Shown: positions 5,958 through 24,705 of the stretch, in pieces
Layout of the letters: each line of letters starts with the position of its first letter
How positions within the stretch are numbered: the stretch's first letter is position 1
Origin: a virus
IMG/VR virus record: IMGVR_UViG_3300045049_000070
Span: 8,412 to 72,411 of that record
DNA length: 64,000 nucleotides
Reading direction: 5' to 3' (one strand)
The notes under the pieces: generated by a model
What the model was told of the DNA's origin: nothing
Database searches by the model: none
The model's input: the letters and a program-made list of their open reading frames with translations, nothing else
Position numbers and translations under genes: made by a program

Positions 5958-5966
5958 CCTGGGCCT

Positions 5967-5975: not shown

Positions 5976-6008
5976 TCAGTATTAAATTGCAGTCCAGGAG
6001 CTGAGAAC

Positions 6009-7280
6009 GTGCCTTTTCAACGCCGCTCGAACAATAAAATCCTTCCGCCAAATAGTCGCACAGCGGATGTGGCTCGGAAGACGCTGGATGCTCTGGTTCC
6101 AGTCCAACAGCGAAAATATGCGAACGCATTCAAAGCAAATGGATATGAAACGTTGGTCTACAGTAGATTGAAACACGGAACTCCGTGTTCATGTCAATCT
6201 TCTAGACGAGCACAGGCCAGCATTCTTGACGAGCAAACAGGAAAATTGAAGAAAGGCCAGATGGAGAAAATATTGACCGGAGGACTATCTTTCCGTGTCA
6301 ATCCATACGGCGTAAAAGAACCGATGCGTGACGATCTGCGTGCCCCTCGTGGTGGTCAATCTCAACCCCGAGACGAGCAGATTTATGACGTGCTAGACAA
6401 CAGTAAACCAGTTGCTGATTGGGAATTAGAGGACGACGTACTCGATAATCCTAATGCGACAGTCACTAGGGCAGCGAATGGTGACGAAGATGATGCACAG
6501 GCTGATATTGTTGATCAAACAGCAGATGATGCTAGCGAGCTGGTGGACATTGAAGCGTATGCTAATGACAGCAAATGCGCAGTTTGTTTCGGGACCGGAT
6601 ATGTCGGTGGATTTACGTTGCTGAACGGATTGCGCTTAGTGATATGCACACAATGGCCTGCCATCTCCAATCTGGTGGGAACTATTGAACCAAACCGTGT
6701 TCCGCATTCATTCTTTACGACAGATGTGTCGTTTACCGTCACGTTACCAAAAGGAGTGATTGGTGTTGATGCATTCAGATTGTGGAACAACGATTTGCAG
6801 ATTCACCCACTGACCATCACAATTGACGGTCTTTCGTATTCGATGGACTTGTTAAGAGCGTTTTGTGACGGACGTCCGCATACGTTCAGATTCCAGTTTG
6901 AACGCCTGACGTATTTCACGCACGTAGAGCTCCAATTCAATTTGTCGGCCATTCCTGCTCTATTCGATTTCCCACGCGGGACGTTTGGAGCAAACATGCA
7001 GAACGTGGAAAATTTGGAGGACATGCAGTTGTATGCGAGTCCAGAGATTCCAAACATCGAACGTGAAGACATGCTGGTCGAATGTACGTTGGGGAAGGCA
7101 TTGGTCGTCAGTTCAGTAACTGATTGGAAGACCAACAAACGTGATATTCTGGGCTGGGACGTGAACGTGCGTGCGCTCCAACCATCAGAACTATTGAACT
7201 TGCTCCCACGTCGTCACCCAACGCATCAGAAATCCACTTACATGATAAGAGACAATATTGATGGTGGACGGAGAACGTAA
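6009..7280 (+). CDS. putative virion structural protein with split Zn-ribbon
   Basis: 423 aa; CSC and CAVCFGTG..GG motifs; AGGAG RBS; follows TAATTTGAT. Confidence 0.6.
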   Translation: MPFQRRSNNKILPPNSRTADVARKTLDALVPVQQRKYANAFKANGYETLVYSRLKHGTPCSCQSSRRAQASILDEQTGKLKKGQMEKILTGGLSFRVNPYGVKEPMRDDLRAPRGGQSQPRDEQIYDVLDNSKPVADWELEDDVLDNPNATVTRAANGDEDDAQADIVDQTADDASELVDIEAYANDSKCAVCFGTGYVGGFTLLNGLRLVICTQWPAISNLVGTIEPNRVPHSFFTTDVSFTVTLPKGVIGVDAFRLWNNDLQIHPLTITIDGLSYSMDLLRAFCDGRPHTFRFQFERLTYFTHVELQFNLSAIPALFDFPRGTFGANMQNVENLEDMQLYASPEIPNIEREDMLVECTLGKALVVSSVTDWKTNKRDILGWDVNVRALQPSELLNLLPRRHPTHQKSTYMIRDNIDGGRRT

Positions 7281-7756
7281 TGCCAATCACGAACAAGACT
7301 GTAGATTTGTGGTCACAAGTTCAACTGAAGGTCGATGGACGTCCTGTCAAAAGCGGTGATTTCTATGACATCAGTTATGATGTTTATCTGGATAACGAGT
7401 ATGTCGGTTATTTGATCTCGGACTACGCATTGAATACTACTGTCCAGAATTTCTTAGACAAATTGGCTCCAGATCAATCACGATTAGCTGATGTTATGTC
7501 TGCTGTTCCTTCACGATATAGATTCAACTACTATTATCTGAACTACCTAGAAATCAAAAGAAAGTGGCAAGGTCAGGGAATAGGTGGAATCGCGTTGCAG
7601 AAATGGTTTTCCAAGTTGAAGTCCCCAGCGATGGTTGGATTAACGCCCGCAAAGATTGCGAATGTCCCAGTAGATATCGTCCGTAAGTTCTATCTTAAGA
7701 ATGGATTCAAGAAAGTAAATCCGCATTATTTTGTCACTTTCATTAAGAGCAAATAG
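7280..7756 (+). CDS. GNAT acetyltransferase with class I leader (MPITNK)
   Basis: WQGQGIG acetyl-CoA motif, FYLKNGF. Confidence 0.75.
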   Translation: MPITNKTVDLWSQVQLKVDGRPVKSGDFYDISYDVYLDNEYVGYLISDYALNTTVQNFLDKLAPDQSRLADVMSAVPSRYRFNYYYLNYLEIKRKWQGQGIGGIALQKWFSKLKSPAMVGLTPAKIANVPVDIVRKFYLKNGFKKVNPHYFVTFIKSK

Positions 7757-7757
7757 T

Positions 7758-7994: not shown

Positions 7995-8009
7995 TCGGCA
8001 TTTCGTGTG

Positions 8010-8124
8010 GGTAATTTGATTCCATACACAAGATAGTTGGGTGGCGGTGGTTGGACCAGAATTCATTCTGGAAACCGTTCCGTTCCGTCGTCATTCACTT
8101 AGGATTAGGAAATTATGGCGATCA
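8010..8124 (+). repeat. promoter plus structured leader, copy 1
   Basis: 37/38 identity with 8692-8729 and an identical 18-mer AGGAAATTATGGCGATCA. Confidence 0.85.
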
Positions 8125-8696
8125 CTAATCGTCCAGAGACTGCTGAGACCTATAAAGACTATATTGAGATTCTGAAAAGGAAATATAAACTGCGAGTATT
8201 AGGTGATGGAGCGTTCGGAACAGTGTTCCAGCACCCCACCTTGAAGAACGTAGCAGTGAAGGTCTACAGACAAGTGAAATGGATGTCAGCAACCAAATGG
8301 TTGGAATGGTGCAAGAAGCATCCGGAGAATCCTTACGTTCCTAAGATCTATAAGGTTGATTCTCTCCAAATAGAACAAGAAGGCTATCAACGATACCTGC
8401 ATAACGTGGTGTTTATGGAGAAACTATCTCGCGTTTCATCCACCTTTGTCGACGAGGTTCTTCAGAAAACAGGAGCATCAACCCATGTCTTGTATAAGAC
8501 AGTTGATGAAGGAAGACTTGTGTACGAATTCTATTCGGATTCACGCAAGAATGTTCGTACTCTGAAAGACAAGAAATTGGCAGAAGTGCTATTGGCGATA
8601 GATCAGTTTGGCGATCAGTCTGATGGAACAGATTTGCGATATTCAAATTTCCTTCGTCGGGATCAACAATTGGTGTTCGTTGATCCTGTGAGGTAA
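8115..8696 (+). CDS. protein kinase-like protein with class I leader (MAITNR)
   Basis: LGDGAFGTV Gly loop, VAVK, DLRYSN catalytic loop, FVDP. Confidence 0.75.
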   Translation: MAITNRPETAETYKDYIEILKRKYKLRVLGDGAFGTVFQHPTLKNVAVKVYRQVKWMSATKWLEWCKKHPENPYVPKIYKVDSLQIEQEGYQRYLHNVVFMEKLSRVSSTFVDEVLQKTGASTHVLYKTVDEGRLVYEFYSDSRKNVRTLKDKKLAEVLLAIDQFGDQSDGTDLRYSNFLRRDQQLVFVDPVR

Positions 8697-8790
8697 TTGG
8701 ATTCCATACACAAGATAGTTGGGTGGCGGCTTCGATTTGATTTATCGAAAACCGAACCGCCGTCATTCATAGAGGAAATTATGGCGATCA
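8692..8790 (+). repeat. promoter plus structured leader, copy 2
   Basis: direct repeat of 8010-8124 with a different inner stem. Confidence 0.85.
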
Positions 8791-10004
8791 AACGATTGAT
8801 GGGCTGTACTGAGATTGCTGACGCAACGCAGTATCGTAGCCTTACCGACGTTGAAAGACATCTGCAACAGATTAAAGATCAACTAAACGACGCTGACGCG
8901 CTTCTGCGTACATACCGACTTCAATTCGCACGAGCTGAGACCTCGGCCATCAAATTCACAGTCGGTCAGGATATTGATGGCCCCAAGAAGGGCGGAAAGA
9001 TAATCACGAATCAGATTGACAAAGTGGTGATTCCCAAGATGGATGCTCTGCGCTCCAACTTTGAGGTCGTCAATCAACTGGCAGAAAAGGTCCAAGAACT
9101 AGAGACCATGTATGCGTCGGTCGAAATCAATTTTCGCGGCGTTCGTGGGCAGCCAGATGTGCTGAAGTCGATCAAGACTATGAAAGCCGGAGCCGAAAAG
9201 AAGCTGCAGGATGCTCTCGACTTTCTAAACGATATCGGCACCAAATACGCCCCAACGGCCTTCAAGGAAATGACCAAGAAGGTTGCGGCGCGTCTGAACG
9301 AAGATCTTGACTTTGAGAAAGCCAAGTCTGCTGTATACGCTACTGAGATGGCGACAGGAGAATTGTCTTTCACTCTTTATATTGAACTAAAAAACCTCTC
9401 AGACGAAAACGGCGAAACATGGCCCAAATTCTACATCGTTCTGACGTGCGTTTTGGTTCCAATAGCTACCGACAAAACGAAACTGAGTGTCGAAACCTAC
9501 GTCACTGTAATGCACGATTTCCAGCCTCCAGGACGTTTTGATGCGGGAAAACGAGTGACGACTGATAAGGAAGCGCTGGCCGAAATCGGACATCTACTTA
9601 GCCTAGAAAATATCGCGACAGCTATCGGCACTTTGCCTCATAATCTGGTAGGGATTGACAAGAAGTTCTTGAAAACTGGAGCCGAGCGTGTACGTGATGT
9701 AGAGGTAGATGAATCTAGCTTCACGTTCTGGTTCCTGAAAGCGGTAAAAGAAGCAGAAGCACGTTCGTTGATGAATACTCTGTATCCGCAAGTTAAAGCA
9801 ATGCTGTCACACATTAAGCGCGCTCAGGTAAAGATGCGACTGCTGGAAGCCAGCGACGGAGGATGGGGCGCGAAATACAGTCTGGTCAATCTGGCTCGTG
9901 ACGACCAGATTTCTGTGCAAGATCTTGATTGGCTGAAGAAGCAATTCAAGATGAGTGACGAAAAGCTACGTGAAGTAGTGAAGATCGTCAACAAAGGAAA
10001 TTAA
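8781..10004 (+). CDS. hypothetical protein, probable virion component
   Basis: GAGGA RBS, ATG 8781; coiled-coil N-half. Confidence 0.75.
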   Translation: MAIKRLMGCTEIADATQYRSLTDVERHLQQIKDQLNDADALLRTYRLQFARAETSAIKFTVGQDIDGPKKGGKIITNQIDKVVIPKMDALRSNFEVVNQLAEKVQELETMYASVEINFRGVRGQPDVLKSIKTMKAGAEKKLQDALDFLNDIGTKYAPTAFKEMTKKVAARLNEDLDFEKAKSAVYATEMATGELSFTLYIELKNLSDENGETWPKFYIVLTCVLVPIATDKTKLSVETYVTVMHDFQPPGRFDAGKRVTTDKEALAEIGHLLSLENIATAIGTLPHNLVGIDKKFLKTGAERVRDVEVDESSFTFWFLKAVKEAEARSLMNTLYPQVKAMLSHIKRAQVKMRLLEASDGGWGAKYSLVNLARDDQISVQDLDWLKKQFKMSDEKLREVVKIVNKGN

Positions 10005-10012
10005 GACATATC

Positions 10013-10447
10013 ATGAAGATCAGACTTCAAGCCGCTGTTCGTCTTAAGAAAGTTTTAGCCGCAGCACTAAAATCCTTCCCTACGTTAAGCAAATATCCGA
10101 CAATCGTGAAAGCAGTCGAGGAAATTGGACTCGACAACAACAGCAGAAAAGACTCTTATTATGGACGCGCCGAGTGGTATCTTACCAAAGGGAAATATAA
10201 GCCTGCAGAATTAGAAGCAACATGCAAAGAACTTTCCGGACAGAATGTCAGTAAGCTCAAGAATCCAAAGGCTATTGAGATGTATGGAAAGAACGGAAAC
10301 TTCTTAGAAGTTCTGGCTATAGGCGAAGATAGGGATCAAAGAGATGTTATGTCCCGTTCACCGAAATACAAACGTGTGTTTGACTTTCTAGCCGATGTAT
10401 TCGACGGTGCAGAGTGTCCTATCCACTCGCTATTCAGAGGTGAATAA
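10013..10447 (+). CDS. hypothetical protein with class II leader
   Basis: MKIRLQAAVRLKKVLAA. Confidence 0.75.
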   Translation: MKIRLQAAVRLKKVLAAALKSFPTLSKYPTIVKAVEEIGLDNNSRKDSYYGRAEWYLTKGKYKPAELEATCKELSGQNVSKLKNPKAIEMYGKNGNFLEVLAIGEDRDQRDVMSRSPKYKRVFDFLADVFDGAECPIHSLFRGE

Positions 10448-10723
10448 ATGAGGATTCAAGCTGTCGCACGGCTTAAAGAAGCCGCTGGTGTTCTAGACGT
10501 TAAACAGAAACAGAAGATACAGAGTGGTCTAGCACAGATATCTGAAGGAATGGCGATCATCAGAGTTGGCCTTAATACGTTGAAACCAATTGTTGATGTT
10601 CTCAAGAAGAATGATGGAAGTTCTTACGTCGATCATGCAAGTGTCACTAACTCACTCAAAGATTTTGAGTTTGTTTTCAAAGCACTTAAAGACGCGATTA
10701 AAGACGACGACAAAGGCATCTAA
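10448..10723 (+). CDS. hypothetical protein with class II leader
   Basis: MRIQAVARLKEAA; GAGGT RBS. Confidence 0.75.
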   Translation: MRIQAVARLKEAAGVLDVKQKQKIQSGLAQISEGMAIIRVGLNTLKPIVDVLKKNDGSSYVDHASVTNSLKDFEFVFKALKDAIKDDDKGI

Positions 10724-11508
10724 TGAAACTGCAAGCACTTGCGCGCCTGTTGTCGCTAGCAGGTGCTTATACCGAAGACAGACTGACACGCGAACAAGCA
10801 AAGAAACTAGCGCTTCAGTTACGTCCGCTAATCAAACGTCATTGTCAGGGTTTCCAGCTAGCGGGCTCATATCGTCGCGGCAAGACTGATATTGGTGACT
10901 TAGATTTTGTGGTAGTCAATTGCGATATGGCTGCCTTGCTCTCTGACTTGGTTGAACATGCTGCGGCAACAGAAGCTCCTCGTGCAGGATCCGGAATGTT
11001 GACCGTCACTGTGCCGTTCGGAAAGAAGAGTATTCAAGTCGAGTTTGTAAACGTCAAGCCTCGCGCGATAGGTAGCGGATTGCTTCATAGTACGGGAGGT
11101 GCAGATTTCAACAAAGGTCTGCGCAGTTACGCCAAGAGTAAGGGAATGCTGCTCAATCAGCATGGTCTGTTCCGTGCTGATAACAAGAGATTCTTAGCCG
11201 GACGTACTGAAGAAGATGTGTTCGACAAGCTAGGGTGGGCGTTCGTTCCACCTAAAGAACGTGGCTTCAGTTTTATGACCTTGAAGCCCAAATATCTTAT
11301 CGATCCATACAAGAATAACCTGTTGTTGAAGAAACCTCAAGGTGAAGGTAAAGTATGGAAGGTCAAATCCAAATCCGATCCAAACAAGCTCTATTTCGTG
11401 ACACTAAAACCGAATGGCAAATGGACATGCACATGTCCGCAGTTTGTGTTCAGAAAAGTAGACTGCAAACACATAGATCTAGTTAAAGAGAGAACAGGTA
11501 CCAAATGA
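10723..11508 (+). CDS. polX: minimal family X DNA polymerase fused to SWIM zinc finger, class II leader
   Basis: AGSYRRGKxxIGDLD, HSTG..FN..LR..AK.KG..LNQHGL; C-terminal CTCP...CKH. Confidence 0.85.
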   Translation: MKLQALARLLSLAGAYTEDRLTREQAKKLALQLRPLIKRHCQGFQLAGSYRRGKTDIGDLDFVVVNCDMAALLSDLVEHAAATEAPRAGSGMLTVTVPFGKKSIQVEFVNVKPRAIGSGLLHSTGGADFNKGLRSYAKSKGMLLNQHGLFRADNKRFLAGRTEEDVFDKLGWAFVPPKERGFSFMTLKPKYLIDPYKNNLLLKKPQGEGKVWKVKSKSDPNKLYFVTLKPNGKWTCTCPQFVFRKVDCKHIDLVKERTGTK

Positions 11509-12104
11509 ATCCCGTTAATCTAGCAAAGCTATCCTACACGTTCCTAGACTCGAACGGTGCTGCGTATGTCGGAAAAGAAGTGACTGTCTACGAAGACAAC
11601 TCTAGTATTCCTGTTCGTACATTCACGTCAGACGGTCGTTTCTTGGGTTCAATTGGATATACAGACCCAAATGGATTGTTTCAGACCTACGTCCTGCAGG
11701 GCAAGAGCTATCGTTTAGTGATCCGTGATGCGGCTCTGAATGGGTTTGAACTCGACGAAGTGACGGGCATTGTTCCTTCGAATGCCAATCCATCGAATGC
11801 AGCTCCGCTGACTGGTCCGCTGGCAATCACTGCATCACGAACGTTGACCGCTCAAGATAACGGACGTACTTTGGTGTCGAACGTCACGTCGGCGATCGTA
11901 CTAACGATTCCTAAAGGACTCGCTTCTGGATTTGGATGTGCAGTCCATCAACAGAATACAGGAAAAGTTACATTTGCTGCCGCATCTGGTGTAACTATGA
12001 CAAATGTTGGCGATCAATATTCGACGTCAGGCCAGAAAGCTACGATTGGATTAGTAAACATTGCTCAGGACGCTTACAACGTTACTGGTTCTACTGGAGC
12101 GTAA
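11505..12104 (+). CDS. tail fibre/decoration-like protein
   Basis: G/S/T/A-rich beta-strand protein. Confidence 0.55.
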   Translation: MNPVNLAKLSYTFLDSNGAAYVGKEVTVYEDNSSIPVRTFTSDGRFLGSIGYTDPNGLFQTYVLQGKSYRLVIRDAALNGFELDEVTGIVPSNANPSNAAPLTGPLAITASRTLTAQDNGRTLVSNVTSAIVLTIPKGLASGFGCAVHQQNTGKVTFAAASGVTMTNVGDQYSTSGQKATIGLVNIAQDAYNVTGSTGA

Positions 12105-12109
12105 TCCAG

Positions 12110-13906
12110 ATGATGTTATCAAATGCTTTTCTAGCAGCTCTTGCAGCGGCCGGAAATCAGAATTTCACCTATTATGTAGATTCGGTAAACGGGAACGATG
12201 CGAACAACGGTACATCTAAAGCATCTGCCTTCCAATCGCTGAGCAGCGTTCCGTTGCTAACCACCGGTCAATCAGTTGGACTGGCATGTGGATCGTACTG
12301 GCGTGGATATCTTCTAGACGTCAATAGTTCTGGTAACATCATCTTTGGATCGTACGGAACAGGTGCCCCTCCGGTAATGGATGGAGCAGTCGTCGTTACT
12401 GGGTGGACACAGAACGGAACATATTCTGATATCTACCAAGTTTCGTTCACACGTGACAATACGAATCCGACGACCACCGAACTACTTGGTCTGTGGATAG
12501 ATGGTATACGCCCACGGTTTGCCTCGTCATTGGCTGATTTGGAAGCTAACGGTGGATGGTATGCAGATTCACGTATCTCCCTGACAACAAACGTGTACGT
12601 GAAAACGGTGCCTAACTCGCACACGATTGAGATCAGCAAATACGATTGGGCGATCGGATGCTACAACGCAGCGACTCCATGCTACGTAAATGGTCCAATC
12701 GAAATGAAGCGTTATCTGGCGCATTACAACGCGCTCCAGATGGGCCCAGGACAGGCTCAACAATTCATTGTTAGAGATGGAACTATCCACCATACGGTTA
12801 CTCAAGCGTCATTGACACAAGATTTCATCTTGACTGAGCTGGATATACCGTCTGATCCAAATCTGATGGTCGCCTATCGTGATAATCCTGTTGGTTTTAC
12901 ACCAGTGATAAAACGTGGATTTGCCATCTTTGATCAAGCTACGTTAGGCGGCCAGAATTTCACAGTTCATGCAATTTCTGAGCACAGCGGATCAACAGAT
13001 ATCCAGAGTCTGGATGCAGAACAGTGCGGCTTTGTTGGAATAAATGGATTGGCCCATCTGTCTGCATCAAGTGGGCATCTAGAAGGAATCTATTGTCACA
13101 ACGTTGTCAGTGACGGAATATTCTTGGGTCCTGGGTCAACGGTGACTAGACTACTGATGTGGGACGATCAAGTCTCTAACTATAACGGCGGTGTCGCTGC
13201 AATGACACAAATCCACGCCGTTGTAAACGCATCTGCTTCTATCACTGACTGCGCTGTGTGGGGAAAGAAAGGTGCTCAGATGGTAATGGACACCGTAGGA
13301 ACAGTTCCGTTACCAATGTCGCACACTGTGCTATCTTCTGACAATGGTCAAGCGATCAACGTTACAAGTGGATCAATTGCCGTCAACTTCTGTGTCATTG
13401 ACACAAACGATACCAACATACAGATTTGGGATGGATCTGATCCAGGATCGTACACTGGAGATTATAACGTATGGGCGTGGTGGCGCAATCCGTCTGGCTT
13501 CCGACCCGGTGCCGTAAAAGGACAATGGAAAGGCTCTCTGATATTCCACCTAAATGATTGGCAAGCAGCGTCTGGTCAGGATGCTCATAGTGTAGGCCTT
13601 GATTCTGCCGATCAGGTGAGTGGCAATGCCAATGCATTCTGGTTAGGAATGGCTCTAGGAACTGGTGGACCTGAAGTTGGTGACTTCCGAATCAATCCAA
13701 ATGCCAGAGTAATAGGTGGTGACGGAACGGCGTACATTGGAACGTTCACTGATGGAACTCCAATCACACAAGCGGGTCCTCAAACTCACTGGGATTGGAA
13801 CGCCAGAGCAATCGCATCTGGTCCTCCAACACATATACCACAGCTGCCAATAACTCTGTCTCAGATGCGACAGTATATTCAAACCCCAAAATTATGGACC
13901 TTCTGA
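12110..13906 (+). CDS. beta-helix (pectin-lyase-like) tailspike/fibre protein
   Basis: YYVDSVNGNDANNGTS..SAF motif, YGTGAPP, G/N/S-rich repeats; start re-assigned to ATG 12110. Confidence 0.65.
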   Translation: MMLSNAFLAALAAAGNQNFTYYVDSVNGNDANNGTSKASAFQSLSSVPLLTTGQSVGLACGSYWRGYLLDVNSSGNIIFGSYGTGAPPVMDGAVVVTGWTQNGTYSDIYQVSFTRDNTNPTTTELLGLWIDGIRPRFASSLADLEANGGWYADSRISLTTNVYVKTVPNSHTIEISKYDWAIGCYNAATPCYVNGPIEMKRYLAHYNALQMGPGQAQQFIVRDGTIHHTVTQASLTQDFILTELDIPSDPNLMVAYRDNPVGFTPVIKRGFAIFDQATLGGQNFTVHAISEHSGSTDIQSLDAEQCGFVGINGLAHLSASSGHLEGIYCHNVVSDGIFLGPGSTVTRLLMWDDQVSNYNGGVAAMTQIHAVVNASASITDCAVWGKKGAQMVMDTVGTVPLPMSHTVLSSDNGQAINVTSGSIAVNFCVIDTNDTNIQIWDGSDPGSYTGDYNVWAWWRNPSGFRPGAVKGQWKGSLIFHLNDWQAASGQDAHSVGLDSADQVSGNANAFWLGMALGTGGPEVGDFRINPNARVIGGDGTAYIGTFTDGTPITQAGPQTHWDWNARAIASGPPTHIPQLPITLSQMRQYIQTPKLWTF

Positions 13907-14364
13907 TGAAGATCAATGCGCCCAATAGACTGAAGGAAATTGCAGTCGAAATCAAACCTGAGAATCGTGGCAAGTTGCACAAGCGGCTTGGTATTCCAGA
14001 AGGAGAGACAATTCCAATGTCTCGTCTACATTCTGAACTCAAGAAAGCCAAGGACAGCGGCGATACTGAGCTCGAAAAGATGGTGAACTTCGCCATAAAT
14101 TTTCACCACAAGGCCTCTGTGCAAAAGGCGGCAAAGAAACGCCTTCGTGATTACTTAGTGTCGTTCATTCCAGAACATTGGCCTGGAACGACTGCGGTCC
14201 TAGAAGACGATTGTGTGATCGTGAAAGGACCAAAAGCACAGTTGGATAAGATCTATAAAGAATACCATGAAGATGGCCATCCAGGCGAACTCGCTTGCTA
14301 TCGCTATCCGAATTATGTGTCGATAACATCGACAGGCCGCAAAATGGGCGGAATGCCATGGTGA
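13906..14364 (+). CDS. hypothetical protein with class II leader
   Basis: MKINAPNRLKEIA; TGATG coupling with upstream gene. Confidence 0.75.
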   Translation: MKINAPNRLKEIAVEIKPENRGKLHKRLGIPEGETIPMSRLHSELKKAKDSGDTELEKMVNFAINFHHKASVQKAAKKRLRDYLVSFIPEHWPGTTAVLEDDCVIVKGPKAQLDKIYKEYHEDGHPGELACYRYPNYVSITSTGRKMGGMPW

Positions 14365-14367
14365 TGT

Positions 14368-15021
14368 ATGCCTGTACCCTACGTTAAGAAATTAGCAGAG
14401 AAGCATGGCATGTCTGTCGATAAGGCAGAAGAACATTGGTCAAAGGCTAAGCAGAGAGCAGCTGACGAAGGCAAGTCTGAAGATTATGCGTATATCACTG
14501 GCATCTTTAAGCGAATGATGGGTGAAAAAGCTGGAGCCGAATCGGATGCTGCTGAACGATTGTACTGGGAGTTTGATGCTCGCAAGAAAGGTTACGGACC
14601 TTGGAAAACACGGCCACAGTCAGAGCGTGATGCATTTAAGCAAATCTTACGTGGAGTTGGAGTGACCGCCAGTCAAAGAGCTAATGTCGTTCTTGCGGCA
14701 ATTGCCAATCAAGCCCAAGCTAAACGGTTCTTGATCGACATTGGTTTGCATCCAACTAAGATCGGACAATCTGACGATAATTACGTTTCGTGGTCGATTG
14801 CAAAAGACAGCGAAGAACAGGACGTAGTAAACAAGATAAGTGAAGCACTTGGCCGTTCTGGAAAGAAAGTCGCGAAAGATTACGGTCCTCCGATTAAACG
14901 CATTACCAAGACAATCCGTTGGCTGTGGGAAGTTCCAGGCAAAGGCGTTATGGTCTTCTATCCACACAGCTACAAAGTCGGTTTCATGAACAAGATCGAA
15001 GACGATCCCGGAGAAGAGTAA
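14368..15021 (+). CDS. hypothetical multi-module protein
   Basis: 217 aa ORF in operon. Confidence 0.75.
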   Translation: MPVPYVKKLAEKHGMSVDKAEEHWSKAKQRAADEGKSEDYAYITGIFKRMMGEKAGAESDAAERLYWEFDARKKGYGPWKTRPQSERDAFKQILRGVGVTASQRANVVLAAIANQAQAKRFLIDIGLHPTKIGQSDDNYVSWSIAKDSEEQDVVNKISEALGRSGKKVAKDYGPPIKRITKTIRWLWEVPGKGVMVFYPHSYKVGFMNKIEDDPGEE

Positions 15022-15501
15022 ATGGCTATCACCAAAATCCATGCTGCTGAACGTTTGAAACAAACGGCTCTTACCGACACAAAAGGAGCAGCTGCGTTTG
15101 TACAGAAGGTCTTTGACAAATATCAGCTTGGTCTTAAAGTCAAAGCCGACAGAAATCCAGATAATGAGACTGAACCGGCATTAGCTGTATCCGGCCGATA
15201 CAAAGGGCAGGAAATTGAGTTCAACATCATTCTCATGGCGGACGGTAAGCGGCCGGATGTAGTTTTTGATGTCTTCGCATGGCCAGAAATGTCCAATGAA
15301 TCACCAGATGATTATGAGGCAATGGACGTTCTAATGCACAACGGCATGAAAAAGAAAAGCGAACGTCGTGCGTTGGTAAAAGGTCTAAATCAAGCAGCTG
15401 GGACGCTCAGAGATTCTGCGAATAGACTTGTAGACTACGCCGATTGGCTTGAACGAGTATCTAAAGCTATGGCGGACATTGGAAGTAAGTACGGGAAATA
15501 A
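15022..15501 (+). CDS. hypothetical protein with hybrid leader
   Basis: MAITKIHAAERLKQTA. Confidence 0.75.
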   Translation: MAITKIHAAERLKQTALTDTKGAAAFVQKVFDKYQLGLKVKADRNPDNETEPALAVSGRYKGQEIEFNIILMADGKRPDVVFDVFAWPEMSNESPDDYEAMDVLMHNGMKKKSERRALVKGLNQAAGTLRDSANRLVDYADWLERVSKAMADIGSKYGK

Positions 15502-15502
15502 C

Positions 15503-16135
15503 ATGAAAGCAGAAAGTCGCTTGAAAGTTCTTGCGACCGAAGGTGAATCGCTGATCGAACGACGTAACAAACAGACTACTGACCTGTTGCACCGTCTTAA
15601 GTCCATGGGTCTATCTGGAGATTGGCGAGTAGAATCGCATCATTCGGTCATCGTGTTTAGACCTCAGGTAAGCATTGCTATTGGTGATTGGTGGACGTCA
15701 AAGACAGAACCTATTCCCGATGGTGAACATATTCTTGGAGAGTTGCTTTACGACTTGCGTAAATTAGGCTACCGTCTAGACAAAGCCAGATCACGTAAAA
15801 TAGGCAGCATGCATGAAAGTGCGTTTTGGACTAACGGCCACGATGTAATCAGAGTAATGGTCACATATGGCCCCGACGACAATCATCACGTAAGTTACAT
15901 AGAATTTGCGTTCTACGAACCAGAATCTGCTGCTCGTTATATTGGCACGCAACAGTGGTTTCTCGACAAGCCTGTTCATAACCAGAAAGATTATCTGACA
16001 AAGAAGCCGTTCTCTAAGTTCAAGCAGGTTCACGAAGACCACAAACAGCAGAAAGAACAAGAAGCGACAGATGAGCAGGATGAACGATACGGACGTGCGA
16101 TGGAACGTCTGCGCCAACGACTGCAGAAAGACTGA
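15503..16135 (+). CDS. hypothetical protein with class II leader
   Basis: MKAESRLKVLA; ATG 1 nt after upstream stop. Confidence 0.75.
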   Translation: MKAESRLKVLATEGESLIERRNKQTTDLLHRLKSMGLSGDWRVESHHSVIVFRPQVSIAIGDWWTSKTEPIPDGEHILGELLYDLRKLGYRLDKARSRKIGSMHESAFWTNGHDVIRVMVTYGPDDNHHVSYIEFAFYEPESAARYIGTQQWFLDKPVHNQKDYLTKKPFSKFKQVHEDHKQQKEQEATDEQDERYGRAMERLRQRLQKD

Positions 16136-16144
16136 AAGTCAATC

Positions 16145-16600
16145 ATGCCTAGCAACAGCAAACGTATTAAAGAGATTCTTGATCGTCTTGGAAAGATCAA
16201 AGAAATCCTAAGACGTAATGTCGATCCTAAGAAGAAAGCACCAGCGATTAAAGAACGTGAAGAATTGAAAAAAGAATTACAGAAGCTTGGATACACTGGC
16301 AAACTATATTCTAGTCTCGGTGCCGTAGCTCGTTTGCAAGAGATCGCTGCTACGAAGCAGGAGTGGGAAACCGTCTATAACGCTACGTTCAAGGTAATGC
16401 TCAAGCACGGACAAAGATATCTTGCTCGTGCCAAATGGTATTACGAGAACGACTACAGCGAAGTGATCATCGCATTCGAGACCGACATGGATGATGTTCC
16501 TGAGAGCTTGCTAAACGAGCTGAAGTCGTGCAATACGAAGAACGTTAGAGTCGATCCCTGCCGAAGCATTCATGGTAGCGGATTCACACGATATAGATAA
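16145..16600 (+). CDS. hypothetical protein with internal class II motif
   Basis: basic N-part, then GAVARLQEIAA. Confidence 0.7.
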   Translation: MPSNSKRIKEILDRLGKIKEILRRNVDPKKKAPAIKEREELKKELQKLGYTGKLYSSLGAVARLQEIAATKQEWETVYNATFKVMLKHGQRYLARAKWYYENDYSEVIIAFETDMDDVPESLLNELKSCNTKNVRVDPCRSIHGSGFTRYR

Positions 16601-16606
16601 GACATT

Positions 16607-18079
16607 ATGAACAGCACACAAGTAATCGTCAAGTACCCCGCCGACATACGAAACGTTTCAGTCGACTTCACCGACGTACTTGTGGGTGGAGAGCAAATCA
16701 CAAGCGGTAGCTTGAGCGTCAGTGATCCAACAGGATTGACAGTCAGCGGACTAGGTTTTACTGCCAGTACCATCAGCCTTAATGTAGGTGGCGGGGCAGA
16801 TAAGCAATCGTATGGTGTGCAAGTGACAGCCAACACGAGTGGCGGTCATATCTACACCAAACAATTAGCAGTGGTCAACAATTCTGATTTGGCTGCCAAC
16901 TATCAGAACGTAAACGTAGATGCGTTCCAGGCTCTGGTTGGAAAGCTTGAGGCAGGAACATCGGCGTTAGGTAAAGTCAACTTCTCGTTTCCAGCAACAG
17001 TTGATACAACGACTGGTGTTGTTGGATGGGAATTGCTAGACATTGATGGGATTGTTCTTTCGTCTGGACAGGCGTTTGGATATCAGACAGTCACCACTGT
17101 TGGTGGCAAACGTGTTGAAGCACAAGCTATCATATCTGTTCCATCGAACACGAAACCAACGTTGGAAGGTCAGTCGTACCAGATTCGCTGGACATTGACT
17201 CTAAACGGCAATCAGAACTATGCGTATGAAAACCTGATTGTCACTGGACCAAATACTGTTCCAGAAGGCCCGGAAGATGTAATCGAGCTATCGGACGCAG
17301 CGTCGTTCTGTGCATCAATAGTGTCTCCGACTCCGTTCGACACTGTTACTGCCGACATCTATGTCAAAAACGATAAGCTGGTTGCAGACGCACCGACTAC
17401 AGCTGTTCAGACCGCAGACGGATGGCTGTACACGATCAATGTGACTAACGATGGTACATTGGTCGCCAGCCTAGATCCGTATACTGTGATGTGGAAGCAA
17501 TCGAATGTTGCACGTCCAAACTATGTTGAACGCAGCACCGGACGACTGTTTGTCGTCAACGCCAGCTTGATGCAGGCAGTAAATGACATGCGGATTATCG
17601 TCAATCGAGCTGAGTCCTCGATTCTCGGCGCGAACGACATCATCTTCACAGAACAGATTCTGCTGGCGTACCTGCGTCGCGGTCGCGACGCGTTCAACAG
17701 TGCATATGGCATGTTCACTGCATTTGACATGAGAAACGCCAGCGGCGGTATTCGCGAGTATTGGCTGCGCTTCAGTGAAATCATGTGCCTGCGTGCTCAG
17801 TTCCTGGCCGAAGGTGAAAAGGTGTTCAATCTTAGTGGACAAGGTATTTCGCTGGATGTGGATCGTACTTCGTACTATAGTCAGTTGGCTGACAACATGC
17901 AATCGCAGCTGGACAACGAATGCAAGTCCATGAAACAAAACCTGATCAAGAAAGGCATCCTTGGCGGTGACGGCAACGTCGACAACTTGACGGCAATGCG
18001 TCGTGGATCGAACGGAGCAGTGGCTATCACAATCACTCCAGCCTCCTCACTTGGATGGCGTTGGGCACGGAGATTCTAA
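16607..18079 (+). CDS. virion structural protein (Ig-like domains plus helical C-terminus, possible head-tail/neck)
   Basis: 490 aa; T/S/V-rich beta domains. Confidence 0.6.
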   Translation: MNSTQVIVKYPADIRNVSVDFTDVLVGGEQITSGSLSVSDPTGLTVSGLGFTASTISLNVGGGADKQSYGVQVTANTSGGHIYTKQLAVVNNSDLAANYQNVNVDAFQALVGKLEAGTSALGKVNFSFPATVDTTTGVVGWELLDIDGIVLSSGQAFGYQTVTTVGGKRVEAQAIISVPSNTKPTLEGQSYQIRWTLTLNGNQNYAYENLIVTGPNTVPEGPEDVIELSDAASFCASIVSPTPFDTVTADIYVKNDKLVADAPTTAVQTADGWLYTINVTNDGTLVASLDPYTVMWKQSNVARPNYVERSTGRLFVVNASLMQAVNDMRIIVNRAESSILGANDIIFTEQILLAYLRRGRDAFNSAYGMFTAFDMRNASGGIREYWLRFSEIMCLRAQFLAEGEKVFNLSGQGISLDVDRTSYYSQLADNMQSQLDNECKSMKQNLIKKGILGGDGNVDNLTAMRRGSNGAVAITITPASSLGWRWARRF

Positions 18080-18084
18080 ATATC

Positions 18085-18357
18085 ATGGCGATCATAAATC
18101 GTGTCGAAGCCGTTCGAAAGCGCATTTACGAGTTCGTCCCCGGAAGACCAAAATTCTTTTACGCAGACGAAGTCGATAGCATCATTAACAATCTAAAAAC
18201 AAAAGGCAAGGCAGAGCTGCTACATAATGCGTTAAGCGACTTTTTCGATTTTAGTGTCGACAGGAGTAATCTAAAGAATCCAAAGAAAGCTTCTGATCAA
18301 CTCTGCAAAGACGTTGGGAAAACTGTCTGGTACTCAGAAATAGACGATGATCACTAA
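18085..18357 (+). CDS. hypothetical protein with class I leader
   Basis: MAIINRVEA. Confidence 0.7.
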   Translation: MAIINRVEAVRKRIYEFVPGRPKFFYADEVDSIINNLKTKGKAELLHNALSDFFDFSVDRSNLKNPKKASDQLCKDVGKTVWYSEIDDDH

Positions 18358-19108
18358 CCGTATACAAGCGGCTGCTTTATACAGATTGGTCGACAGCATG
18401 CCTTCAGTAACTGTCTACCACGGAACCACTGAGAAAGAAGCCGAAAGAGGACTGAAAAATCCTGATAACCTAAATACAAACTGGGCACAAGGTCTCCTGC
18501 CTCCAAATAGTCATCATCTAACAACTGACTTGAATCTAGCGAAAGGATATGCATCATCTGGTGTTCCTAGAAAATATTTCAAGGAATCAGAGAAGCGAAT
18601 GAATGATGCTATTGATGACGTTCAACGAACAGCTAGAGATTACGAAAAGAAGCTAGGATTGGATCCAGATTCTAAGATGTGGTCCGTGTGGAAAGAACAA
18701 TCTCCACACACCTTTAAGAAGAAATATCCGAATGTATTCAAGCTTGGAGAAGTTGAATACGAGAAGCGTGTCAAGCAGCTAATGAAATTCTCTAAAAGTC
18801 TTTATATAGCTTTCGATGACAAAGTGGAGCAAAAGAAACTTGAAGACGTTCGCGGTCAAGGTGGATATGTTCTATCGTTTACCCTTACTCCAAAGAAGGT
18901 GCTCGCATTTTCAAAACCCTTTGACTCTCTTGACAAGTATGAACTATTTAGTGCCCTTCAGCGAATGAAGGGCAAGTTCCAGTGTATCTATTTTCCCAGT
19001 TCATATTTGCGTCCAGAAAATATGAAAGGTGGTCGTGTCAAGAGAAGTGATTACTATATTGTAGTAGGAACAAAGCTTCTCTCAAATCAGAAGAGAATAG
19101 ACTTATGA
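18347..19108 (+). CDS. ADP-ribosyltransferase-like protein with class I leader
   Basis: MITNRIQA; VYHGT ... HLTTDLNLAKGYA ... GYVLSF. Confidence 0.5.
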   Translation: MITNRIQAAALYRLVDSMPSVTVYHGTTEKEAERGLKNPDNLNTNWAQGLLPPNSHHLTTDLNLAKGYASSGVPRKYFKESEKRMNDAIDDVQRTARDYEKKLGLDPDSKMWSVWKEQSPHTFKKKYPNVFKLGEVEYEKRVKQLMKFSKSLYIAFDDKVEQKKLEDVRGQGGYVLSFTLTPKKVLAFSKPFDSLDKYELFSALQRMKGKFQCIYFPSSYLRPENMKGGRVKRSDYYIVVGTKLLSNQKRIDL

Positions 19109-19755
19109 CGATCACCAATCGAATCGTTGCTGTCCCGAAAGAAGCTAATCCAAACAGCAAAGAGTGGAAAGCCGGATACTCTGCCGGTCGCAATGGGAAG
19201 AGTAGCAAATCACCTCACGTAAAAGGCACTCAAAAGGAAATCGACTGGACGGATGGATGGATAACTGGTGATCATGAACGTAATAGTCCACCTCCAAAAT
19301 CAACTAAGGATGTTTTGGGATATTCGATACAAGATCGCTTAGAACGTTTACGACAACGTCGTGGGGATCCTCCAGATGTCTGGTACACGCATGAAACAGC
19401 GGTTCCGTCCAAAAGCGTTTACTACGTTCTCAGACGATTATTCAAGACACTATTTCCACACGGAGGAGCTGGCGACGTTCCGCCGTATGGAACAAACATA
19501 TGTCATGGGCGAGTGGCAGAAGCAATCAAACGTAGGAACTACAATCCAGAAGACAAAATCTGGCTGTATGGCGCGTCTGGTGGTGATGTCATGCATTCGG
19601 TCCTGACAGACGAACATAATCGAGTGATCCTCGATCCTTGGGCTGGAAGCGGAAACGCTTTTGGTGGACGAGATGGTTATGGCAAACCCGGTGACATGCT
19701 TGACTGTTTATGGGTCGAAACAGTGGCCGGACTTCAAGACGAATTTGGTATTTAA
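19105..19755 (+). CDS. class I leader protein with RMF-like module
   Basis: MTITNRIVA; WKAGYSAG..G....SPH......DWTDGW..G. Confidence 0.6.
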   Translation: MTITNRIVAVPKEANPNSKEWKAGYSAGRNGKSSKSPHVKGTQKEIDWTDGWITGDHERNSPPPKSTKDVLGYSIQDRLERLRQRRGDPPDVWYTHETAVPSKSVYYVLRRLFKTLFPHGGAGDVPPYGTNICHGRVAEAIKRRNYNPEDKIWLYGASGGDVMHSVLTDEHNRVILDPWAGSGNAFGGRDGYGKPGDMLDCLWVETVAGLQDEFGI

Positions 19756-19770
19756 CACATAGGAGCTATC

Positions 19771-19905: not shown

Positions 19906-19906
19906 T

Positions 19907-20218
19907 ATGGCAATCTCAGAACGTATAACGTCAGCTATTGGAATAACTCCTGAACAGAAGCAGATACAAACCAAGTTCCTGACGTTGCTGAAGCGTAGTA
20001 ATAGAGGGATCAAGGCAGAACAAGCAGGTAGTGTTTGGGAGGTCTACTACACTTCGAAAGACCACAGCATCACCTTTGGTGACGACTTGCTGAAGTTCTC
20101 GGTAAAGAACGGTATAACCATATCAATCATAAAAGACTCTACTGTAATCAAACTCAGTGCGATCTTCTCTATGGATAGAAACCAAATGCAAGAGCTTATA
20201 GATAACATCAGTGACTAA
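19907..20218 (+). CDS. hypothetical protein with class I-like leader
   Basis: MAISERITSA. Confidence 0.7.
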   Translation: MAISERITSAIGITPEQKQIQTKFLTLLKRSNRGIKAEQAGSVWEVYYTSKDHSITFGDDLLKFSVKNGITISIIKDSTVIKLSAIFSMDRNQMQELIDNISD

Positions 20219-20539: not shown

Positions 20540-20549
20540 AGGACGAAAT

Positions 20550-22529: not shown

Positions 22530-22886
22530 ATGGCAATCACAAACAAAGTCACTGCAAAGCCTTCGCAGGAAACTGCTCTCAGTTGGGCAGATATGGCGAA
22601 AACGGTTAACACTGTCGTTAATGAACTCCGCGCGGGCGGAGTCAAGTTGAAGAAAGAGAATGAACCTGTACGCGGGCCTTCTTACTACAGACAGTTCTAT
22701 ATCTGCTTGTCAGGTGAGGAATCGATTCCAAAAATCTTGAAAGCACGTGGATTCAAGACTGATAAACTTGGGACGATGGGAAAGCGAGTAGGCTCGTATG
22801 GAGTGGCTGTAGACTACGATCCCAACGATAACATGATTGAAATCGTCATTACAGATTTCGACGGTCCACAAGAAGAACCTTTCTGA
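22530..22886 (+). CDS. hypothetical protein with class I leader
   Basis: MAITNKVTA. Confidence 0.75.
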   Translation: MAITNKVTAKPSQETALSWADMAKTVNTVVNELRAGGVKLKKENEPVRGPSYYRQFYICLSGEESIPKILKARGFKTDKLGTMGKRVGSYGVAVDYDPNDNMIEIVITDFDGPQEEPF

Positions 22887-22888: not shown

Positions 22889-23110
22889 ATGGCAATCAAG
22901 AACCGTATTCAAGCTACTCCAGGCGAGCTCACTGGATGGTTCTTGCCTGTAGACAGTGTTAGCGACATCCAACGTGAACGCATTACAGAATTCGTAAGGC
23001 GAGCAAAGGGTGCTCACTTCATCAACATCTTGATGCGTATCGACGGTCAAGACGAGAATATTGAGGCCGACTGGCTCAGTCGTCTCGATCCAAGTACTTC
23101 CATCGTATAA
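22889..23110 (+). CDS. class I leader protein, paralog A
   Basis: MAIKNRIQA; similar to 23400-23624. Confidence 0.75.
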   Translation: MAIKNRIQATPGELTGWFLPVDSVSDIQRERITEFVRRAKGAHFINILMRIDGQDENIEADWLSRLDPSTSIV

Positions 23111-23136: not shown

Positions 23137-23400
23137 ATGCAACGCCTCCAACCAAACGGCAGACTGTGGAACTTCGTTATCGCAGTAGACCAGTTGATAG
23201 CCACATGGTTTGGAGCGTGGCCTGACGAGACATTGAGCAGTTATGCTTGGCGTCTTGAGCGTGCTGGTGACCCCGAAGGTCACTACTGGCGTGTACAGAT
23301 CGACGACATCTTTGAGCATTTGTTTGGTGTACGGGATCATTGTGAAAACGCACATGCAAGTCACATGATACGTAATTCCATCCCTCCTGAGGAGCGCTAA
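23137..23400 (+). CDS. small phage protein (DQL...G.PDETLSS type)
   Basis: IAVDQL..GAWPDETLSSYAWR..DHC motif seen in many phage proteins. Confidence 0.7.
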   Translation: MQRLQPNGRLWNFVIAVDQLIATWFGAWPDETLSSYAWRLERAGDPEGHYWRVQIDDIFEHLFGVRDHCENAHASHMIRNSIPPEER

Positions 23401-23624
23401 TGGCGATCAAGAACAGAATTCAAGCCAGTACCAGGATTAAGGGCTGGTTTCTAAAAGCAACAGATGATCAAGAGTACGCGCAGCGAATTAACTCGATCAT
23501 CAACTGGTTGAAGGGTGCACACTTCATTGATCTTGCGGTTCGAATCAATGGGAAAGATGAACGAGAACAAGGCGATTGGGTCAAGTACCTAGAGCCAGTG
23601 TTTGGAGAAGAAGATGTCACTTAA
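23400..23624 (+). CDS. class I leader protein, paralog B
   Basis: MAIKNRIQA; GWFL, KGAHFI, RIxGxDE, DW shared with 22889. Confidence 0.75.
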   Translation: MAIKNRIQASTRIKGWFLKATDDQEYAQRINSIINWLKGAHFIDLAVRINGKDEREQGDWVKYLEPVFGEEDVT

Positions 23625-24075
23625 GAAAGTAGAAGCAGCACAAATTAGCGCGGCCGGGATTATCTTTGTGCATGATGGACAGTTCTTGTTAATCATGCGT
23701 GCGCGTGATGTTGTCTCTCCATCTGTGTGGTGCGGAGCTGGTGGAAAGATCGAACCGGGCGAAACACCGGAACAGGCCGCCATACGCGAGTCTGAGGAAG
23801 AAATTGGGTTTCCATCTGATTTGCCAATGGAACTGATTCCGCTATATGTGTTCAATAGCGACAGTCTGGTATTTCATAACTATATCGGATGGCTAAAGGG
23901 TGACCGATTTGACCCTAAGCTGAATTGGGAGTCAGATGGATGGGCATGGTTCACGATGGAGAATCTGCCACAGAATGGATTACACTTCGGCTTTCAGGCT
24001 ATACTGTCTGATCCAATGGCAGCGTCCTTGTTGAACAGAACTATTGAAGGTTCCGTACTAAAGAGAGCAGAATGA
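23614..24075 (+). CDS. NUDIX hydrolase
   Basis: Nudix box GGKIEPGETPEQAAIRESEEEIG. Confidence 0.92.
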   Translation: MSLKKVEAAQISAAGIIFVHDGQFLLIMRARDVVSPSVWCGAGGKIEPGETPEQAAIRESEEEIGFPSDLPMELIPLYVFNSDSLVFHNYIGWLKGDRFDPKLNWESDGWAWFTMENLPQNGLHFGFQAILSDPMAASLLNRTIEGSVLKRAE

Positions 24076-24305
24076 TGCCCATCTCAAATAGAGTCGAAGC
24101 TGTAGGCGAATCTCCAGAAGAAACAAAGGAGTGGGAAGCCATCGCCAAGTTTGTGGCGCGCGGCAAAGGAAGTGCCGTCAAGGACAAAGGCAAGAAAGTA
24201 ATGTCTACGTATGACAGACTTCCAAAGTCAAATCCCACTATTCACGAGATCGAAGTTAATGGAACTCGATACGCCATTGTGAAAATCATCAGTCTGAGTA
24301 ACTAA
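24072..24305 (+). CDS. hypothetical protein with class I leader
   Basis: MMPISNRVEA. Confidence 0.7.
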   Translation: MMPISNRVEAVGESPEETKEWEAIAKFVARGKGSAVKDKGKKVMSTYDRLPKSNPTIHEIEVNGTRYAIVKIISLSN

Positions 24306-24318: not shown

Positions 24319-24705
24319 ATGACTATAACAAATCGCATAACGGCATCTCCAGCAACGCTGGAAGAACGTACCAACATTCCAAACGATCCGATTAGTGTTG
24401 CTCGTGCTCATTGGTTTATCGCTCATTTCCAGAACGGTCTTGAACGACAACTTCATTTGGCTTTCGATCCGTCCTTGACCGGACACGACAGAATCGTGTT
24501 CAAGAGGAAAGGAAATCAGCTGAACGCTGAATCGATTGTGGCATGGCTAGAACATGCGGGGCTGAAGTTTCGTCCTGCCCGTATGAGCGTCGGAATCCCA
24601 TATGCCATGATAAGCGATCGCCAATCTATCGACGGCCAATACATCTACTTCTCTGTCACATACTATGCAACACAAGGCACAGTGACTGTCTCGTGCCAAT
24701 GGTGA
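24319..24705 (+). CDS. hypothetical protein with class I leader
   Basis: MTITNRITA. Confidence 0.72.
   Translation: MTITNRITASPATLEERTNIPNDPISVARAHWFIAHFQNGLERQLHLAFDPSLTGHDRIVFKRKGNQLNAESIVAWLEHAGLKFRPARMSVGIPYAMISDRQSIDGQYIYFSVTYYATQGTVTVSCQW

Follow-up and report, generated by a model that had tools for sequence, protein, structure and literature searches.

A portable N-terminal leader peptide on unrelated proteins of phiRSL1-like jumbo phages and its possible role in capsid loading

Introduction

In phage T4, the internal proteins IPI–III and Alt carry a capsid targeting sequence (CTS), which is removed by the gp21 prohead protease. In encapsulins, short linear peptides on unrelated cargo are read by an HK97-fold shell, thereby loading the cargo. 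Here, we describe a leader peptide found in a stretch of 64,000 nucleotides from a virus, which we refer to as the window (bases 8412–72411 of the 72,411-base IMG/VR contig IMGVR_UViG_3300045049_000070, a fragment with a CheckV completeness of 29). About 20 neighboring genes in it begin with variants of one short peptide, of which a preliminary description had distinguished two classes. The leader is a real, portable N-terminal peptide tag that sits on many unrelated bodies, is under selection as a peptide, and has a phage-specific dialect.

By analogy, the closest known kind of element would be the T4 CTS. Both are short N-terminal peptides found on unrelated proteins whose small, fast-changing genes form arrays, and the leader-bearing phage group has a prohead protease that is predicted to share the T4 gp21 fold. 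The two peptides themselves appear unrelated in sequence. The leader differs from the CTS in that its phages have many more tagged genes (up to 16 in a locus of 21 kilobases (kb)), in that the cargo consists mostly of recognizable enzymes, in lacking a fixed-register cleavage site, and in that its packaging and cleavage are putative. Like the leader, encapsulin peptides are short, linear, and found on unrelated cargo, but they are usually C-terminal and unrelated to it in sequence.

A second point of comparison is provided by the N-terminal propeptides of head and ejection proteins in SPN3US and phiKZ, which are, likewise, jumbo myophages with a gp21-type protease. According to the parts of PMC10052503 drawn on here, T4 propeptides direct proteins to the core of the prohead, and cleavage by the SPN3US protease follows A-X-E, V being favored at P4. 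In two head proteins of SPN3US, the propeptides are short (20 and 24 residues), while most of the propeptides measure 111–254 residues (PMC10052503, same parts). A-x-[ED], a possible cleavage site, is enriched just past the leader core. On the other hand, those parts describe no motif common to the SPN3US propeptides, whereas the leader is a 12-residue consensus on dozens of proteins.

With respect to cargo, a parallel is formed by the polyvalent proteins, for which the portion of Iyer et al. 2017 (PMC5512222) used here lists the protein-targeting classes of zincin-like metallopeptidases, T7-like kinases, GNATs, and Pol-beta nucleotidyltransferases, predicted to be injected with the DNA. The same effector domain classes occur among the tagged proteins, those of the window including a kinase, a GNAT, and a Pol-beta nucleotidyltransferase. 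Polyvalent proteins, as that portion presents them, combine many domains in one giant packaged polypeptide, whereas leader proteins are solo domains, each with its own short tag. The 2–15 disparate domains per polypeptide by which polyvalent proteins are recognized were not found in the tagged proteins, which are mostly single-domain and 50–500 residues long.

The leader peptide in the window

Each of the six N-termini quoted in the preliminary description starts at an ATG (at 10013, 10448, 10723, 13906, 15022, and 15503), and that of the gene at 18347 reads MITNRIQAAALYRL, as had been claimed. For nine leader genes (10448, 13906, 15022, 18085, 19105, 19907, 23400, 24072, and 24319), the gene calls in a public collection share the start methionine, judged by protein length or sequence.

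To quantify the enrichment, the contig was scanned in six frames with A..R[LI][KRQLA]..[ALT] for class II and I[TSK][NE][RK][IVP] for class I, both patterns having been written post hoc with the data already seen. The class II pattern occurs 13 times, and six of these occurrences lie within seven residues of the first methionine of a long open reading frame (ORF; 10031–15509), against 0.55 expected in that N-terminal zone (Fisher p = 7.5e-6). The other seven comprise one internal copy (16322), two positions deeper in leader genes (14131 and 16097), and four elsewhere, in a different frame or strand. Matches to the class I pattern number 11, nine of them one or two residues past the first methionine of an ORF (0.46 expected). 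Enrichment over shuffled N-termini, proposed earlier as a check, is borne out as well: among 109 crude gene calls, eight have A..RL in their first 24 residues, where the internal rate predicts 1.18 and 2000 shuffles give a mean of 0.99 and a maximum of 5. The extended form A..R[LI]K opens six genes within the same 24 residues and has no match in 20,020 internal residues; these two patterns were likewise chosen post hoc. A pattern-free pairwise 8-mer test is modestly positive, with 25 N-terminal versus 10 internal pairs at score 25 (shuffles: mean 13.4, maximum 20). Replication in other genomes is a stronger argument than any of these counts in the window.

The peptide itself has few conspicuous physical properties. 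Its first 10 residues are predicted as a short helix at low confidence (predicted local distance difference test score, pLDDT, ~51), and the hydrophobic moment of 0.15–0.31 at 100 degrees gives no support for a strongly amphipathic helix, which makes a membrane anchor, considered as a candidate role, unlikely. GATC (Dam-like) sites at several class I starts are a by-product of the codon pairs for Ala-Ile, Lys-Ile, and Thr-Ile, and are missing from about half of these starts. When the N-terminal 40 residues of 18 leader proteins served as profile queries against 5.8 billion proteins, 11 matches at E ≤ 10 were obtained among 8000 scored candidates; seven of these are from the window's own contig.

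Occurrence across the phage group

The window derives from a jumbo myophage of the group that includes Ralstonia phiRSL1 (RSL1), Burkholderia BcepSauron, and Achromobacter Motura. A tblastn search with its head-tail connector protein matched 127 phage records, the best including phiRSL1 (39.3% identity over 95% of the query), the Burkholderia phages BcepSauron, BcepSaruman, and BCSR5, and Motura. RSL1 also agrees in gene order, which runs from NAMPT via the connector and HNH genes to the helicase. By megablast, positions 9000–20000 of the window had zero matches in the phage collection. The closest relative, an IMG/VR contig of 248,884 bases that is rated complete (G001), has a connector 68% identical to that of the window.

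An alignment of connectors was used to fetch 35 IMG/VR loci, none longer than 21.5 kb; sampling was confined to a distance of 10 kb from the connector. In these loci and the window's own stretch, a loose pattern (A..R[LI] at residues 2–13) retrieves 191 non-identical ORFs, of which 165 are on the connector's strand and 26, roughly the chance level, on the opposite one. The leader consensus is M-K-[IL]-[ENQ]-A-A-x-R-L-x-A-[TS], and the methionine stands seven residues ahead of the arginine in 53% of the 172 loose-pattern ORFs that reach that far. When a strict pattern ([ILVMF].A..R[LI]) is applied, 27 of the 35 loci together yield 130 unique proteins, up to 16 per 21-kb locus; eight loci have none.

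The leader is also present in cultured phages. RSL1 has about ten, of the form M-x-Y-x-I-x-A-A-V-x-R-L-x-A-T, and a 41-kb stretch of BcepSauron has at least five. Whole-genome scans of RSL1 and G001 place most leaders near the head-tail connector gene, and no such leaders were seen around the connector of Pseudomonas phage PaBG, a distant relative. We found no description of the leader in the literature searched, including term look-ups in PMC7824862, PMC8066314, and the Matilda preprint; the RSL1 papers and the Matilda supplements, which lie outside this coverage, may bear on it.

Unrelated bodies and their cargo repertoire

The leaders had been described as sitting on unrelated bodies, and this holds. 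After removal of the first 25 residues from 21 leader proteins of the window, an all-against-all BLASTP comparison leaves a single related pair (22889/23400, E = 1.5e-11), all other pairs having E ≥ 0.016. Group-wide, the bodies of the 130 strict-pattern proteins form 79 BLASTP clusters. One feature of the T4 CTS, namely a short N-terminal peptide common to otherwise unrelated proteins of one phage, is found here as well. Known domains begin past the leader, for example, at residue 14 for the kinase and residue 23 for the palm. When the nucleotidyltransferase encoded at 10723 was compared with 1.84 billion proteins, nearly all of the 150 homologues listed aligned only from query residue ~10–20 onward. 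In many of these homologues, the conserved body is immediately preceded by a short N-terminal helix that belongs to the homologue itself; part of the 10723 leader may therefore be enzyme-family sequence, making it the least clean example.

Pfam names 11 of the 79 cluster representatives, leaving 68 without a match at E ≤ 1e-4. The named cargo comprises NUDIX, GNAT (two), SprT-like, KMPT-N, a lethal-factor-like metallopeptidase (below the cut-off), Zeta_toxin, saccharopine dehydrogenase (homospermidine synthase), DUF3175, and a stretch resembling ribosome modulation factor (RMF). RMF itself gives weak matches in two tagged proteins, at 19105–19755 of the window and L064:8669–8902 (Motura), with 19.9 and 25.2 bits for a cut-off of 27.9. 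The leader of homospermidine synthase occurs in some uncultured relatives (L040:8461–9897 and L061:2733 onward) and is missing in RSL1.

Directly behind the leader, a module of ~35 residues recurs across the group, in which the leader is followed by W-W/F..L-S...Q-K.Y..L-H-P-N-S-K. It is borne by L041:9653–9949, L038:2904–4454, G001 208574–211057 (minus strand), and the window gene 15503–16135, where it forms the C-terminal part of the protein instead of following the leader directly. It heads both the 827-residue gene past the portal of G001 and a protein of 517 residues whose kinase domain is of the Zeta-toxin type (E = 4e-20), and BcepSauron gp075 has two leader-plus-module copies. The module matched no family in Pfam and PHROG, and fold prediction of leader plus module gave low-confidence helices only.

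Selection on the peptide and phage dialects

At the DNA level, the leaders are far less uniform. The conserved arginine and leucine of class II are each encoded by several codons, and at shared residues within the window, the third base is the same in 17 of 62 comparisons for class II and in 83 of 181 for class I. For three relatives, only 37–44% of same-residue comparisons show identity of the whole codon. Since codons vary freely while residues are kept, selection acts on the peptide and not on the DNA.

The peptide also differs between phages. Over the eight columns that are not fixed by the search pattern, leader identity is 0.40 within loci versus 0.25 between loci, a figure that paralogy within loci inflates somewhat. 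None of 300 label shuffles reached the observed difference of 0.142 (shuffle maximum 0.027). In locus L051, for instance, all seven leaders have R-I in place of R-L. Taken together, the dialects and the scrambled synonymous sites point to co-evolution with one reader per phage and, as far as can be judged from the sequences, suggest that one common, phage-specific reader recognizes the leader.

It could be argued that there is no shared signal at all, and that a common N-terminal helix was spread by repeated 5'-end duplication or recombination, or kept for expression or folding. Such an origin would suit the neighboring arrays of small genes, which suggest local duplication, the greater likeness of leaders within one genome, the prediction of the leader as a mere short helix of low confidence, and the enzyme families that, as for 10723, have a short N-terminal helix of their own. 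We consider it improbable nonetheless, because the bodies are unrelated both in the window and across the 79 clusters, homologues of tagged enzymes elsewhere are without the tag, and the pattern of scrambled synonymous sites with retained residues speaks for long-term purifying selection on the peptide.

One tag family in two versions

The two classes were initially read either as separate routes for docking or as evolutionary versions of a single tag; the evidence favors versions over routes. Both classes align as overlapping portions of a composite, M-A-I-T-N-R-I-Q-A-x-x-R-L-K-x-x-A, of which class I retains the first portion and class II the second. The leaders at 15022 and 18347, already suspected to be hybrids, do contain both portions, as do those at 23400 and 10013. 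These hybrids bridge the classes and thus argue for one tag family rather than two routes. Moreover, the 10723 ortholog switches class, with a class II leader in the window and a class I-like one in G001 (gene at 162147). Judging from these comparisons and from its group-wide presence, class II is the canonical leader of the whole phage group, and class I (M-A-I-T-N-R-[IV]-x-A) is probably a local derivative of the same tag.

The distribution of class I is narrow, as it was seen only in the window phage and the relative closest to it. Trained on the window, a class I profile picks up eight of 2925 candidate N-termini in G001 (E between 1.6e-4 and 0.037), of which one is located two genes past the portal and the other seven in the syntenic cluster. 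Over the related loci, it recovers seven of 6461 N-termini at E < 0.1, all in L014 (the closest relative), and nothing in RSL1 or the 34 other related loci. A class II profile built from the six window leaders fails to retrieve individual RSL1 leaders (the best genuine one has E = 2.3) and in G001 finds the 13906 ortholog alone (E = 0.008).

The classes do cluster in different sub-regions, as stated in the preliminary description, with class II at 10.0–16.3 kb and class I at 7.3–8.8 and 18.1–24.7 kb; local descent accounts for this as well as separate routes would. The same clustering could be cited for two separate tags with two different docking sites, along with the fact that leaders with class I only run on into Pro or Gly, the R-L-x-A half being absent. 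Set against the single composite alignment with its hybrids, the ortholog that changes class between the window phage and G001, and the lack of class I in RSL1 and 34 of 35 related loci, we regard two such tags as very unlikely, all the more as the class I core N-R-I-Q-A is also the x-R-[LI]-x-A core of the canonical leader in L040.

Capsid loading and alternative destinations

We propose, with a rough probability of 0.45, that the leader is a capsid-loading tag akin to the T4 CTS. One phage-specific reader would recognize the tag, which would direct solo effectors (protein kinase, GNAT, Pol-beta-type nucleotidyltransferase, NUDIX, metallopeptidases, and Zeta-type kinase) to the assembling prohead. 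These effectors would then be packed with the DNA and injected, like the T4 internal proteins that carry a CTS, and a T4 gp21-type prohead protease would perhaps clip the tag off. This proposal is based on the position of tagged genes beside portal, prohead protease, and tail genes in relatives, on the gp21-fold protease, and on a cargo that resembles injected effectors.

In RSL1, the portal gene is followed directly downstream by the tagged ORF210, and the prohead protease gene likewise by the tagged ORF133. The 827-residue gene next after the portal in G001 opens with a leader-like peptide and a W-W...Q-x-E-Y-L-x-E-H-P-x-S-K module, and a class I leader heads the second gene after it. Tagged gp077 of BcepSauron sits between the sheath and tube genes. 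The G001 prohead protease was modeled (pLDDT 82.6) and superimposes on T4 gp21 with Z = 10.3 and a root-mean-square deviation of 2.8 Å over 137 residues, herpesvirus proteases reaching Z ≤ 7.0; by this model, the phage group probably has a gp21-type prohead protease, as modeled for the closest relative rather than for the window contig.

As for cleavage, A-x-[ED] occurs within 14 residues past the R-L core in 38 of 130 leaders, compared with 14.8 ± 3.3 in control windows of the same proteins. In the group's major capsid proteins, an acidic residue followed by [YFL][RK] lies 11–21 residues from the start in all 119 examined, typically inside [VL]-A-[ST]-[ED]. This site is consistent with the A-X-E specificity and the V at P4 given for SPN3US in the parts of PMC10052503 used here. 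Removal of the leader by the protease is thus possible, as far as the motifs go. The prohead protease family itself (G001 12582–13388, minus strand; homologues P0132–P0188) has a conserved N-terminal stretch that is loosely leader-like, K-I-Y..R.L, followed by A-V-Y-A-D-x-E, a motif that may be a self-cleavage site. When a tagged protein of 68 residues was combined with the major capsid protein and the prohead protease of G001, the complex prediction scored 0.00, which provides no evidence either way.

Several observations weigh against capsid loading. The A-x-[ED] excess is largely due to a conserved alanine at +3, no acidic residue stands at a fixed distance past the core (D plus E make up 15% at +5 and +6, near background), and class I leaders have no A-x-E. 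The idea that class I mimics the N-terminus of the capsid protein was dropped, as the resemblance is not significant: a profile of capsid-protein N-termini misses the leaders (best window match E = 0.68, to a non-leader), and the class I profile has its best BcepSauron match at E = 0.41. In GenBank/RefSeq, the tagged RSL1 ORFs in the stretches listed are "hypothetical protein" save the NUDIX hydrolase ORF109, and none is marked as a virion protein. On the window contig, a search gave no portal match, and family scans covering part of the ORFs gave no capsid or protease genes. Tagged genes share strand and neighborhood with genes for replication and nucleotide metabolism and so need not be late genes. 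Finally, homospermidine synthase is among the cargo, and no reason is evident for packaging this metabolic enzyme.

The last two points would fit better with a tag that docks proteins to some phage-encoded hub different from the capsid, for instance, a compartment for replication or assembly, a chaperone, or a modifying enzyme. NUDIX and nucleotidyltransferase cargo points the same way, and the dialects imply a phage-specific reader but leave its identity unspecified. With tagged genes adjoining portal, protease, and tail genes in three relatives and a cargo repertoire like that of injected effectors, we nevertheless hold such a destination to be unlikely; we also know of no report of a phage-built compartment in this group, whose genes were not searched for one. 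A more specific version, in which the leader is a linear sorting signal in the infected cell that sends a varying set of dozens of enzymes to a non-capsid site built by the phage or to a phage-controlled protease, seems quite improbable.

A role in degradation or timing has also been weighed, whereby the tag would limit the lifetime of accessory proteins through an unfoldase-protease (host ClpXP-type or the partner of a phage HslV-family peptidase). The motif is strictly near the N-terminus, as its methionine spacing illustrates, its M-basic-hydrophobic start is presumably loosely like N-terminal ClpX motifs, and the window encodes an HslV-family peptidase (59990–60445). Several proteins conserve in-frame internal copies of the motif, however, for which an N-terminal degron would have no use, the dialects of different phages diverge further than expected from a conserved host protease, and the tag is found on large conserved proteins next to the portal. 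This leaves a degradation signal with a low probability.

Should the leader indeed load proteins into the head, a 12-residue pattern would reveal from sequence alone the injected effector arsenal of a whole jumbo-phage group, consisting of kinases, acetyltransferases, nucleotidyltransferases, NUDIX hydrolases, metallopeptidases, and many unknowns. Many solo effectors under one address would then be an alternative to polyvalent fusions, and the tag could serve for loading chosen proteins into jumbo-phage capsids. Were it a sorting signal instead, phage cell biology would gain its first known short "zip code" peptide, with dialect and reader co-evolving in each phage. As the group has cultured phages (Motura, BcepSauron, Matilda, and RSL1), the idea is directly testable by virion mass spectrometry, and the dialects offer a route to the reader by covariation.

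Leader genes of the window

The leader genes and the connector gene are collected in Table 1. The family of the 407-residue protein upstream of the connector has members with a canonical leader in relatives, and canonical leaders are likewise present on the NUDIX orthologs of RSL1, BcepSauron, and uncultured relatives. The 13906 protein is 82% identical to its G001 ortholog, and the differences are mostly within the leader. In the ORF at 16145–16600, the codon before the internal motif is CTC, so that there is no start there.

Table 1. Genes and motifs of the leader array, with positions in the window
Feature	Position	Strand	Supporting observation
MPITNK... class I leader; GNAT-like body	7280..7756	+	Pfam Acetyltransf_7 E = 8.9e-4, below cut-off; G001 ortholog 41% identity
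MAITNR... class I leader; T7 gp0.7-like protein kinase body	8115..8696	+	phrog_15752 E = 8.8e-12, match from residue 14
Starts MAIKRL...; conserved 407-residue protein upstream of connector	8781..10004	+	G001 ortholog 53% identity, same start
Class II leader (10013–10063), long form, Met 9 residues before Arg	10013..10447	+	
Canonical class II leader (10448–10486)	10448..10723	+	91-residue protein of window contig in public collection
Class II leader (10723–10761); DNA polymerase beta-type nucleotidyltransferase with SWIM finger	10723..11508	+	Pfam thumb E = 2.2e-20, palm from residue 23, SWIM
Canonical class II leader (13906–13944)	13906..14364	+	Identical 152-residue protein in public collection
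Small N-terminal domain, then decayed internal leader copy	14368..15021	+	Intact class II motif in G001 ortholog and RSL1 ORF112
Hybrid leader (15022–15069)	15022..15501	+	
Shortened class II leader (15503–15535)	15503..16135	+	C-terminus with W-F...Q-K-x-Y-L...K-P-x-S-K-F module
Internal class II motif, residues 59–70 of 16145–16600 ORF	16319..16354	+	Class II profile rank 7, 8.3 bits; next match 2.7
Head-tail connector protein gene	16607–18079		
Class I leader MAIINRVEAV...	18085..18357	+	Identical 90-residue protein in public collection
Hybrid leader	18347..19108	+	
Class I leader; weak RMF-like stretch	19105..19755	+	Pfam RMF E = 7.8e-4, below cut-off
Class I-like leader MAISERITSA...	19907..20218	+	
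Class I leader	22530..22886	+	
Class I leader, missing from the preliminary description; 23400 paralogue	22889..23110	+	
Hybrid leader: class I core, then S-T-R-I-K	23400..23624	+	
NUDIX hydrolase, weak class I-like start MSLKKVEAAQ...	23614..24075	+	phrog_1198 E = 1.8e-19
Class I leader	24075..24305	+	Leader kept in orthologs P0004 and P0008
Class I leader	24319..24705	+	

The gene at 14368–15021 has a peculiar arrangement. Its small, conserved N-terminal domain is a stand-alone gene of 71 residues in BcepSauron, while in the window phage, G001, and RSL1, this domain is fused ahead of the leader-like motif and a body. The arrangement may represent a gene fusion or a polyprotein.

Neighboring genes

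Besides the leader genes, the window encodes NAMPT, a 1589-residue helicase, a DNA polymerase, an SSB protein, a UvsX-like recombinase, a clamp loader, and SbcCD. Promoter-like and terminator-like sites in 5900–25000 are not more frequent than in shuffles. Within the leader array, positions 11505–13906 hold two fibre-like or virion-like genes that are absent from the equivalent place in G001; the C-terminal domain of the first matches virion-protein families of PHROG, and the second encodes a 599-residue protein.

NAMPT (window 10–1497) probably forms a nicotinamide adenine dinucleotide (NAD) salvage pair with a gene ~3 kb upstream, outside the window (genome 5093–6214), whose start resembles the cytidylyl/adenylyltransferase genes close to NAMPT in RSL1 and BcepSauron. 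On the minus strand, a divergent cluster at 57922–63877 contains the HslV-family peptidase mentioned above (phrog_1040, E = 3.2e-20) and a member of a "DNA transfer protein" family (58182–59651, E = 1e-142). The same cluster encodes a protein of 566 residues that belongs to an unnamed phage family and has three ORFs with hydrophobic-looking N-termini.

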